Source: Escherichia coli (GTDB lineage Bacteria; Pseudomonadota; Gammaproteobacteria; Enterobacterales; Enterobacteriaceae). From it: 64,000 nt of DNA. The DNA lies in the NCBI RefSeq assembly GCF_003334815.1, contig NZ_QOWO01000007.1, one strand, 5' to 3'. The position numbers and the translations under genes are program-made. The notes beneath the pieces are model-generated. The model made no database searches. It saw only the letters and a program-made list of their open reading frames with translations, and was not told the DNA's origin. Shown here piece by piece: positions 7,514 through 12,189 of the stretch. Position 1 is the first letter of the stretch; the number at the start of each line of letters is the position of its first letter.

Positions 7514-8512
<999 letters not shown>

Positions 8513-8842
8513 TTTCTTGCGTTATTTTCGGCACCTTTTATGTAGCGAAGGTGCCGGAATATATTCTCTTTTGTTACTTATTTCTATACCGTGCACAATA
8601 TTTTTATCCCTCATATTTATAGGGTAAATTACCTGTAAAGTAGTGTCTAATTACCCGCCTCGCAAACTCCAGTTTTCAAATATCTATTTCAGGTCAAAAG
8701 ATTGAATTATTCACTGGAGACGATTCGTAAATTCGCTGGATTTTTGACTAAAGTTTCTTTAGGATTTGTCTCATCGTATGATTAATTACACCAATCGTTC
8801 AACGTCTTGCTGATAAGTGATGGCGATTATATGAGGTTAGCA

Positions 8843-8971
8843 ATGCCTTCTGGAAATCAGGAACCCCGCCGCGATCCTGAATTAAAACGTAAAGCCTGGC
8901 TGGCGGTTTTTCTTGGTTCTGCACTTTTCTGGGTGGTTGTCGCACTGCTGATTTGGAAAGTGTGGGGATAA
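8843..8971 (+). CDS. ymiA: Small membrane protein YmiA (42 aa)
   Basis: ATG 8843, single hydrophobic helix (WLAVFLGSALFWVVVALLIWKVW); small-gene call from recalled annotation; absent from the ORF track because below its size cut-off. Confidence 0.55.
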   Translation: MPSGNQEPRRDPELKRKAWLAVFLGSALFWVVVALLIWKVWG

Positions 8972-8973
8972 CT

Positions 8974-9141
8974 ATGGTCGGTCAGGAGCAACTGGAGTCG
9001 TCACCATTATGCCAGCATAGTGACAATGAAACAGAAACGAAACGGGAATGTTCCGTCGTTATTCCAGACGACTGGCAACTAACATCGCAGCAGCAAGCCT
9101 TTATAGAACTGTTTGCTGAAGATGATCAGCCGAAACAATAA
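8974..9141 (+). CDS. yciX: Small protein YciX (55 aa)
   Basis: ATG 8974 directly after ymiA stop; the ORF-track version starts at an upstream TTG (8953). Confidence 0.5.
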   Translation: MVGQEQLESSPLCQHSDNETETKRECSVVIPDDWQLTSQQQAFIELFAEDDQPKQ

Positions 9142-9513
9142 TTATCATCATTCTTATTACCCATTTTTAATGAATTAAAGGGCTTTTAATACACCGCAGC
9201 AATAACAGCTTGAGTTATCTCAACACAAAATAATAACCGTTAAGGGTGTAGCCTATGATCAACACAAATATGAAATATTGGTCCTGGATGGGCGCGTTTT
9301 CTCTGTCGATGCTCTTCTGGGCCGAACTCCTCTGGATCATTACTCACTGATCCTTGACCCCGCTGCGGCGGGGTTGTCATTTGCTTTGCCACAAGGTTTC
9401 TCCTCTTTTATCAATTTGGGTTGTTATCAAATCGTTACGCGATGTTTGTGTTATCTTTAATATTCACCCTGAAGAGAATCAGGGCTTCGCAACCCTGTCA
9501 TTAAGGAGGAGCT

Positions 9514-12189
9514 ATGTCGTCAACCCTACGAGAAGCCAGTAAGGACACGTTGCAGGCCAAAGATAAAACTTACCACTACTACAGCCTGCCGCTTGCTGCT
9601 AAATCACTGGGCGATATCACCCGTCTACCCAAGTCACTCAAAGTTTTGCTCGAAAACCTGCTGCGCTGGCAGGATGGTAACTCGGTTACCGAAGAGGATA
9701 TCCACGCGCTGGCAGGATGGCTGAAAAATGCCCATGCTGACCGTGAAATTGCCTACCGCCCGGCAAGGGTGCTGATGCAGGACTTTACCGGCGTACCTGC
9801 CGTTGTTGATCTGGCGGCAATGCGCGAAGCGGTTAAACGCCTCGGCGGCGATACTGCAAAGGTTAACCCGCTCTCACCGGTCGACCTGGTCATTGACCAC
9901 TCGGTGACCGTCGATCGTTTTGGTGATGATGAGGCATTTGAAGAAAACGTACGCCTGGAAATGGAGCGCAACCACGAACGTTATGTGTTCCTGAAATGGG
10001 GAAAGCAAGCGTTCAGTCGGTTTAGCGTCGTGCCGCCAGGCACAGGCATTTGCCATCAGGTTAACCTCGAATATCTCGGCAAAGCAGTGTGGAGTGAATT
10101 GCAGGACGGTGAATGGATTGCTTATCCGGATACACTCGTTGGTACTGACTCGCACACCACCATGATCAACGGCCTTGGCGTGCTGGGGTGGGGCGTTGGT
10201 GGGATCGAAGCAGAAGCCGCAATGTTAGGCCAGCCGGTTTCCATGCTTATCCCGGATGTAGTGGGCTTCAAACTTACCGGAAAATTACGTGAAGGTATTA
10301 CCGCCACAGACCTGGTTCTCACTGTTACCCAAATGCTGCGCAAACATGGCGTGGTGGGGAAATTCGTCGAATTTTATGGTGATGGTCTGGATTCACTACC
10401 GTTGGCGGATCGCGCCACCATTGCCAATATGTCGCCAGAATATGGTGCCACCTGTGGCTTCTTCCCAATCGATGCTGTAACCCTCGATTACATGCGTTTA
10501 AGCGGGCGCAGCGAAGATCAGGTCGAGTTGGTCGAAAAATATGCCAAAGCGCAGGGCATGTGGCGTAACCCGGGCGATGAACCAATTTTTACCAGTACGT
10601 TAGAACTGGATATGAATGACGTTGAAGCGAGCCTGGCAGGGCCTAAACGCCCACAGGATCGCGTTGCACTGCCCGATGTACCAAAAGCATTTGCCGCCAG
10701 TAACGAACTGGAAGTGAATGCCACGCATAAAGATCGCCAGCCGGTCGATTATGTTATGAACGGACATCAGTATCAGTTACCTGATGGCGCTGTGGTCATT
10801 GCTGCGATAACCTCGTGCACCAACACCTCTAACCCAAGTGTGCTGATGGCCGCAGGCTTGCTGGCGAAAAAAGCCGTAACTCTGGGCCTCAAGCGGCAAC
10901 CATGGGTCAAAGCGTCGCTGGCACCGGGTTCGAAAGTCGTTTCTGATTATCTGGCAAAAGCGAAACTGACACCGTATCTCGACGAACTGGGGTTTAACCT
11001 TGTGGGATACGGTTGTACCACCTGTATTGGTAACTCTGGGCCGCTGCCCGATCCTATCGAAACGGCAATCAAAAAAGGCGATTTAACCGTCGGTGCGGTG
11101 CTGTCCGGCAACCGTAACTTTGAAGGCCGTATCCATCCGCTGGTTAAAACTAACTGGCTGGCCTCGCCGCCGCTGGTGGTTGCCTATGCGCTGGCGGGAA
11201 ATATGAATATCAACCTGGCTTCTGAGCCTATCGGCCATGATCGCAAAGGCGATCCGGTTTATCTGAAAGATATCTGGCCATCGGCACAAGAAATTGCCCG
11301 TGCGGTAGAACAAGTCTCCACAGAAATGTTCCGCAAAGAGTACGCAGAAGTTTTTGAAGGCACAGCAGAGTGGAAGGGAATTAACGTCACACGATCCGAT
11401 ACCTACGGTTGGCAGGAGGACTCAACCTATATTCGCTTATCGCCTTTCTTTGATGAAATGCAGGCAACACCAGCACCAGTGGAAGATATTCACGGTGCGC
11501 GGATCCTCGCAATGCTGGGGGATTCAGTCACCACTGACCATATCTCTCCGGCGGGCAGTATTAAGCCCGACAGCCCAGCGGGTCGATATCTACAAGGTCG
11601 GGGTGTTGAGCGAAAAGACTTTAACTCCTACGGTTCGCGGCGTGGTAACCATGAAGTGATGATGCGCGGCACCTTCGCCAATATTCGCATCCGTAATGAA
11701 ATGGTGCCTGGCGTTGAAGGGGGGATGACGCGGCATTTACCTGACAGCGACGTAGTCTCTATTTATGATGCTGCGATGCGCTATAAGCAGGAGCAAACGC
11801 CGCTGGCGGTGATTGCCGGGAAAGAGTATGGATCAGGCTCCAGTCGTGACTGGGCGGCAAAAGGTCCGCGTCTGCTTGGTATTCGTGTGGTGATTGCCGA
11901 ATCGTTTGAACGAATTCACCGTTCGAATTTAATTGGCATGGGCATCCTGCCGCTGGAATTTCCGCAAGGCGTAACGCGTAAAACGTTAGGGCTAACCGGG
12001 GAAGAGAAGATTGATATTGGCGATCTGCAAAACCTACAACCCGGCGCGACGGTTCCGGTGACGCTTACGCGCGCGGATGGTAGCCAGGAAGTCGTACCCT
12101 GCCGTTGTCGTATCGACACCGCGACGGAGTTGACCTACTACCAGAACGACGGCATTTTGCATTATGTCATTCGTAATATGTTGAAGTAA
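9514..12189 (+). CDS. acnA: Aconitate hydratase A
   Basis: 891 aa; Fe-S cluster cysteine motifs ([18 protein letters not shown]). Confidence 0.96.

Follow-up and report, generated by a model that had tools for sequence, protein, structure and literature searches.

Gene content of the cysB–acnA spacer

The window analyzed here is a 64,000-nt stretch of Escherichia coli DNA (RefSeq assembly GCF_003334815.1, contig NZ_QOWO01000007.1), and its arrangement in the region of interest is that of E. coli K-12: topA, cysB (7538–8512), a spacer and then acnA, the gene for aconitase A (9514–12189, plus strand), which is the downstream neighbor and enters this account only as context. Between the end of cysB at 8512 and the start of acnA at 9514 lie 1,001 nt. 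An earlier note on this DNA, made from the letters alone, had described this gap of about 1 kb as holding two tandem small ORFs, ymiA and yciX; the description holds, and RefSeq gives the same two names at 8843–9141. A third small ORF, ymiC, and the terminator that follows it had escaped the note. The MG1655 equivalents are b4522 (ymiA, 46 amino acids, window 8831–8971), b4523 (yciX, 55 amino acids, 8974–9141) and b4741 (ymiC, 31 amino acids, 9255–9350), all on the plus strand. The spacer is present at 95% identity or better in 5,422 of 5,426 complete E. coli genomes, where it is annotated with ymiA, yciX and ymiC. Two records with an interrupted spacer are NZ_CP049118.1 and NZ_CP189662.1; strain EC931 carries an IS1A insertion between cysB and acnA, and in strain 102651 the spacer match is split. 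The locus is an ordinary one, already annotated and partly studied, and it leaves the E. coli map unchanged.

Short ORFs are plentiful in AT-rich DNA such as this spacer (61 of at least 20 amino acids in 3.5 kb). Because ORFs of this size are so common, the mere presence of one is no evidence for a gene, and support has to come from comparative conservation and from experiment. An example is a 48-amino acid ORF on the minus strand at 8799–8945, which overlaps ymiA and in whose frame 66 of 80 species have no stop codon; it is most likely a by-product of the codon composition of ymiA and not a gene.

The spacer opens with a terminator-like hairpin on the plus strand (8526–8559), whose stem of 13 pairs runs into a T-rich tail. 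It separates the transcription of cysB from that of the small genes, and most of the other aligned genera have a hairpin in this position. A strongly conserved region (8630–8830, plus strand) holding promoter, regulatory sites and 5′ leader comes next, and ymiA follows it. An ATG at 8843–8845 opens a frame of 42 codons, MPSGNQEPRRDPELKRKAWLAVFLGSALFWVVVALLIWKVWG, which ends in a TAA at 8969–8971 and is preceded by the ribosome-binding sequence GAGG at 8833–8836. The 55-codon frame of yciX runs from an ATG at 8974–8976 to a TAA at 9139–9141, and its start lies exactly where the earlier note had placed it, 2 nt (CT) past the ymiA stop. The ribosome-binding sequence of yciX, GGGG at 8964–8967, falls inside the Trp41 and Gly42 codons of ymiA, 6 nt before the yciX ATG.

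YmiA, YciX and their conservation

The 42-residue product is a full-length member of a recognized family, for which the E. coli K-12 protein is the prototype: it scores 97.2 bits against NCBIfam NF000536 (cut-off 30) over profile positions 1–42 of 42, and homologues carry the Pfam domain PF22868 (YmiA-like). Residues K15-R16-K17-A18-W19 are invariant and a hydrophobic segment comes next, so that a basic KRK stretch directly precedes the transmembrane helix. AlphaFold2 models residues 12–41 as one helix, with pLDDT of at least 90 in the membrane part, and GFP-YmiA has been reported at the cell periphery or membrane; the single-helix membrane peptide of the earlier note is thus corroborated by both model and published localization, as a single-pass inner-membrane peptide with a cytoplasmic N-terminus. 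Within its frame ymiA has a dN/dS of 0.12, against 1.5–2.0 off-frame.

Where ymiA begins is a separate matter. The NF000536 profile has 42 positions and begins at the 8843 methionine, which was also the annotated start in 2006; the current K-12 annotation begins at 8831 and gives 46 amino acids. Published data favor the longer form in K-12. Tetracycline-arrested ribosome profiling (TetRP) finds that initiation occurs mainly 12 nt before 8843, which yields a protein beginning MRLAMPSG; profiling with Onc112 and retapamulin agrees on the upstream start; and the tryptic peptide LAMPSGNQEPR is possible only if translation starts upstream of 8843. Parallel reaction monitoring (PRM) mass spectrometry finds roughly 1,000–3,000 copies of the 46-residue protein per cell, and the literature also cites detection of YmiA by epitope tagging. 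The 42-residue frame of the earlier note is therefore real, but its start is not the one used in K-12, and the ribosome profiling that the note had named as a way to verify these genes already exists for ymiA and shows initiation, at 8831. Comparison across species adds a qualification: all 80 of the 80 species loci have the core ATG at 8843 and the GAGG, whereas the ATG four codons upstream that K-12 uses occurs in only 56, and most species outside Escherichia have an ATG at −11 instead of −4. From this alignment the conserved unit is best defined as the 42-residue YmiA core (8843–8971), bearing lineage-specific N-terminal extensions, of which the four residues added in K-12 are one.

In a published low-Mg2+ study, over-production of YmiA alone causes a lag of about 8–10 h and longer cells, an effect that depends on the start codon, and deletion of ymiA has no growth phenotype. 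Seven small proteins slowed growth when over-produced in that study, and six of the seven are membrane proteins.

The case of yciX rests on comparison. A word-indexed search returned homologues from Escherichia and Shigella only, as if YciX were an orphan of that lineage, while the same kind of search finds YmiA in many genera. This Escherichia-only picture was overturned when loci from 80 species were fetched with the YmiA profile and then searched for YciX by tblastn, and again by an exhaustive HMM search of 1.8 billion representative sequences. A yciX-related ORF of 49–59 amino acids directly follows ymiA in 79 of the 80 species loci, and the HMM search found 73 YciX relatives, nearly all of 50–100 amino acids, with members in Pantoea, Atlantibacter and Mangrovibacter that are named "hypothetical protein." Curated models for this family are absent from Pfam and NCBIfam, and it is defined here by alignment; comparison of YciX with Pfam, NCBIfam, PDB sequences, PADLOC and, through Foldseek, PDB structures gave nothing significant. 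By its length, motif and position the ORF in the window is the Escherichia member of the family.

Conservation is concentrated in the C-terminal half of YciX, in the motif IPxSWxLTxxQxxFIDxF, and the N-terminal half is variable. Residues W34, L36, Q40, F43 and I44 are invariant, and P31 and F47 are nearly so; in the window the motif region comprises codons 30–51 (IPDDWQLTSQQQAFIELFAEDD, 9061–9126, plus strand). AlphaFold2 predicts that the N-terminal half is disordered and that residues 38–46 form a single short, confident helix (pLDDT 92 for residues 31–40 and 85 for 41–50), and the N-terminal half is probably disordered in the protein as well. The ratio dN/dS for yciX is 0.33 in frame and 1.2–1.35 off-frame. 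Since the alignment behind this count was built on proteins, the count was repeated within genera on ungapped sequences of equal length, which gave a pN/pS of 0.20–0.46; taken by halves, again within genera, pN/pS is 0.07–0.32 for the C-terminal part and 0.33–0.53 for the N-terminal part. Judged by these substitution patterns, yciX is under purifying selection. The earlier note had called the 55-residue peptide acidic. This is true in E. coli, where 12 aspartates and glutamates stand against 3 lysines and arginines (net charge −9), but the family as a whole does not share it: orthologues have a median net charge of +2, and acidity is limited to the Escherichia and Citrobacter freundii lineages. 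In the literature searched, YciX is met through changes in its transcript, such as a 3- to 12-fold drop in mRNA on inhibition of LolCDE, and no direct detection of the protein by tag, peptide or start-site peak was found there.

The two genes stay together across species. Each of the 80 species has one syntenic copy, and distant relatives keep the order topA-cysB-ymiA-yciX-acnA. The yciX start lies 0–4 nt past the ymiA stop in 79 of 80 loci; its frame relative to ymiA varies, and the ORF stays intact. No species locus that retains the gene has either frame interrupted, and the other frames are mostly closed. A yciX ribosome-binding sequence inside the Trp41-Gly42 codons of ymiA, at −14 to −4 of the yciX start, is present in 80 of 80 loci (GGGG in 78, GGAG in 2), and ATGA-type overlaps of the two genes occur in distant loci. 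The pair is also kept together where ymiC or acnA is missing. One locus (L090) has it after cysB with acnA not adjacent, another (L086) has it flanked by genes for an ABC transporter and an MFS protein, and a third (L088) has it beside a phage-type integrase in DNA of 39% GC, with an ATGA stop/start overlap. Against the YmiA model, whose cut-off is 30 bits, the upstream peptides of L086 and L088 reach 41.9 and 33.6 bits. The integrase-adjacent arrangement is seen in only 1 of about 90 loci; plasmid and phage searches with this pair gave no matches, and a search of E. coli with the same locus matched only a neighboring gene of 137 amino acids and not the pair.

Salmonella offers the one clear departure. 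In S. enterica subsp. arizonae an internal deletion has removed the core of yciX (locus L042, 2630–2700), and ymiA and ymiC are intact, which indicates that YmiA can persist without YciX; in S. enterica subsp. diarizonae (locus L036, 2227–2397) yciX is intact and has a GTG start that follows the ymiA stop directly. The two genes are joined in a single frame in some E. coli and metagenome assemblies, as YmiA-YciX fusions of 91–97 amino acids (P0109, P0110, P0119, P0143 and P0144). Small deletions or frameshifts where the genes meet give rise to these fusions, which may be real variants or assembly errors. Taken as a whole, the link of yciX to ymiA is as faithful as that between any partners in an operon; it holds across the Enterobacteriaceae, reaches at least one Pantoea (Erwiniaceae) and survives outside the cysB–acnA interval too. 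What this analysis adds is modest: on comparative grounds, yciX is a conserved, obligate companion of ymiA; it carries a defined motif, and no family model covers it.

Transcription of the small genes and their relation to acnA

In an alignment of 25 species, about 200 nt before ymiA show strong conservation and include blocks of columns that do not vary at all. A scan of the plus strand from 8400 to 9600 for the sigma-70 consensus returned no promoter, so that the promoters of ymiA and the distal one of acnA cannot be placed by consensus. TATGAT at 8777–8782 is a candidate −10 element for ymiA, from which the position of the start site would follow, and just upstream of it is an invariant octamer, TTAGGATT (8759–8766), which does not match the consensus for PhoP or for CpxR. 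An AtoC site, GCGAGGCGGGTAATTAGACA, has been reported by ChIP at −199 to −180 of ymiA (window 8644–8663), and the cysB/ymiA spacer has been listed as a "promoter island." The leader itself (8785–8842, GATAAGTGAT...CGATTAT ATGAGG) is conserved at the nucleotide level nearly as well as coding sequence across some 25 genera. Folding and covariation gave no conserved RNA structure in this 5′ leader (−2.65 kcal/mol, no covarying pairs), and its conservation could reflect an alternative N-terminal extension, a target for a small RNA or a protein-binding site.

Reporter fusions and RNA-seq have shown that the region upstream of ymiA responds to low Mg2+ in a PhoQ-dependent manner, and ymiA-yciX-ymiC has been reported as an operon that is PhoQ-dependent and induced in low magnesium. 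The canonical PhoP box, (T/G)GTTTA-N5-(T/G)GTTTA, has no match with two or fewer mismatches upstream of ymiA. Matches with three mismatches at 8745–8761 and 8756–8772 are at chance level (171 in the window versus 127 expected) and are not conserved across species, and a scan for CpxR boxes gave only poorly conserved matches, also at chance level. Since a canonical box is absent, control of ymiA by PhoP may be indirect. Farther downstream, a PhoP-box-like sequence with two mismatches, TGTTTGTGTTATCTTTA (9443–9459), overlaps the region of the acnA P2 promoter; it may be there by chance, as about 17 matches this good or better occur in the 64-kb window.

The third gene, ymiC (9255–9350), encodes a membrane peptide that scores 66 bits against NF041484 (cut-off 42) and whose product has been detected by epitope tagging. 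It is reported to lie on the yciX 3′UTR; the region just before it was inactive as a promoter in a reporter, and dRNA-seq, as cited in the literature, likewise gave ymiC no promoter of its own. The gene is absent from the Citrobacter freundii group and from Pseudescherichia. Aligned by hhalign, the YmiA and YmiC profiles match with a probability of 90% (E = 1.6e-6) over 22 ungapped columns (K..W...F..S.LFW), and the two are possibly diverged paralogues, with the proviso that similarity between transmembrane segments can be spurious.

Rfam RF02079 (STnc180) matches 9182–9384 on the plus strand at 198 bits, well above its gathering threshold of 50, over model positions 1–208 of 208. STnc180 is listed as an enterobacterial sRNA, but the matched RNA holds the translated ymiC and the operon terminator, so the label "non-coding" does not fit it; it is no part of ymiA or yciX. 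In Salmonella an STnc180 probe detected RNAs of 500–2000 nt, which the original study called likely processed mRNA. From its position and content, STnc180 is the ymiC-coding 3′ tail of the ymiA-yciX-ymiC mRNA.

An intrinsic terminator closes the unit at 9355–9376 (plus strand), 138 nt before the acnA ATG. It is a GC-rich hairpin (−18 kcal/mol, z = −2.7), and in most species a hairpin and T-tract lie 3–9 nt past the ymiC stop and 132–145 nt before the acnA ATG. The K-12 version has an interrupted T-tract, which makes some read-through into acnA possible. In K-12 the ymiC stop also pairs into the outer stem (9348–9376), and in most of loci L002–L081 the stop lies 3–9 nt before the stem. A ribosome that has reached the ymiC stop would sit on part of the 5′ arm, and translation of ymiC could in this way modulate read-through into acnA.

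The acnA gene has its own start site, P2, reported at −50 (about 9464), which is downstream of the terminator at 9355–9376. With a terminator after ymiC and P2 beyond it, the small genes make up a separate unit, and we infer that this unit is largely independent of acnA. The earlier note had called the relation to acnA unclear; it is now less open, given the reported operon, a ymiC without its own promoter and an acnA P2 start beyond the terminator.

Proposed functional coupling and alternative readings

Very probably, ymiA and yciX are real, translationally coupled small-protein genes that form, with ymiC, a transcription unit of their own between cysB and acnA. Ribosomes finishing ymiA stop 2 nt before the yciX ATG, with the ribosome-binding sequence of yciX encoded by the last two sense codons of ymiA; translation of yciX would then be coupled to that of ymiA, and both proteins would be made together. 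The conservation of the gene pair suggests that YmiA and YciX may act as one module, most plausibly one in which the membrane peptide works with, or is tempered by, a soluble partner through its conserved helix.

Three other readings would give the two frames a different meaning. ymiA and yciX might be leader ORFs of acnA, setting by attenuation, or by protection of a long 5′UTR, how much transcription reaches it. They lie on the same strand directly upstream of acnA, the T-tract of the K-12 terminator is weak, and the STnc180 probe detects RNAs as long as 2000 nt in Salmonella; acnA is also said to have a distal promoter, P1, at about −407, which would presumably fall within the 3′ end of yciX. 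Against a leader role stand the conserved terminator between the small genes and acnA, the P2 start at −50 past that terminator, the lack of a conserved alternative RNA structure in the ymiA leader, and the survival of the pair in L090 without an adjoining acnA and in two unrelated contexts. The only terminator lies 214 nt past the yciX stop, after ymiC, and purifying selection on the peptides places the constraint on the protein sequences; we regard leader function as quite improbable. A narrower doubt concerns yciX itself, whose frame might be open only for the sake of translation, for instance so that ymiC escapes Rho-dependent polarity or so that ribosomes are kept moving along the transcript, the amino acids of YciX being irrelevant. 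This would suit the absence of a published detection in the literature searched, the confinement of homologues to Escherichia and Shigella in the first word-indexed search, the poorly conserved and predictedly disordered N-terminal half, and the loss of the core in S. enterica subsp. arizonae. It would not account for a C-terminal motif that is conserved across families at the amino acid level, with W34, L36, Q40, F43 and I44 invariant, nor for the pN/pS of 0.07–0.32 in that half, nor for an ORF that persists without ymiC and in non-syntenic loci, and we give a non-functional yciX only a very small chance.

The growth effect of YmiA raises a third reading, in which YmiA damages the membrane and YciX, made from the same message, neutralizes it as an antidote would. 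The lag of about 8–10 h and the longer cells seen when YmiA alone is over-produced would agree with this, as would the tight coupling of the two genes and the copy beside an integrase in a low-GC region. The growth effect, however, is non-specific in that six of the seven small proteins that slow growth are membrane proteins, deletion of ymiA has no phenotype, and arizonae keeps ymiA without an intact yciX. The distribution is not the patchy, multicopy or mobile one of toxin-antitoxin systems: in 80 species the pair occurs as one syntenic, vertically inherited copy, the plasmid and phage searches gave no copies, and PADLOC gave no match. A cassette of this kind is very unlikely. Type I toxins such as DinQ, Ldr and TisB resemble YmiA in being small hydrophobic peptides of the inner membrane that impair growth when over-produced, but an Rfam scan of the strand opposite ymiA shows no antisense RNA, ymiA is single-copy and syntenic, and YmiA is present at about 1,000–3,000 copies in normal cells.

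Closer parallels to the favored reading, a coupled pair of small-protein genes, come from the low-magnesium response. Like MgrB, MgtS and PmrR (the last in Salmonella), YmiA is a single-pass inner-membrane peptide of fewer than 50 amino acids that is PhoQ-dependent and induced by low Mg2+, and over-production causes a long lag in all of them. It differs from them in having no known target protein, no deletion phenotype and no canonical PhoP box, and in that ymiA is always followed by a coupled gene for a soluble partner. The pairs mgtS-mgtT and yriA-yriB, from the same low-Mg2+ study, are likewise transcribed under stress as a single RNA with at least two small ORFs, the stop of one lying next to or overlapping the start of the other; those ORFs overlap out of frame, whereas ymiA and yciX stand in tandem with a gap of 0–4 nt. 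YciX, at more than 50 amino acids, was outside the limit of that study and is not among the 17 proteins it characterized, and the pairing of ymiA with yciX is conserved beyond the Enterobacteriaceae.

A more specific proposal, which we offer as tentative and consider somewhat doubtful, is that YmiA and YciX are an undescribed two-part module of the Enterobacterales, in which the PhoQ-induced membrane peptide recruits, or is restrained by, the co-translated YciX through its invariant W-L-Q-F-I helix and acts on a target in the envelope or in cell division. As a crude test, YciX-(GGGGS)5-YmiA was modeled with AlphaFold2 as a single chain from 37 paired sequences. Judged by its confidence scores, the model shows no sign of a well-supported complex: the pTM was 0.25, and the pLDDT of YciX residues 31–40, which run up to and into the predicted helix, was 71, down from 92 for YciX alone.

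If the module exists, it would explain the lag and the elongation of cells in which YmiA is over-produced without YciX, and YciX would be the missing half. That half would have been overlooked through the absence of a family model, a name given only in Escherichia, and a length of 55 amino acids, above the 50-amino acid limit of the low-Mg2+ study. The residues W34, L36, Q40, F43 and I44 make a concrete motif to mutate, and the published over-expression and deletion experiments on YmiA, which left YciX out of account, may have probed just one half of a module.
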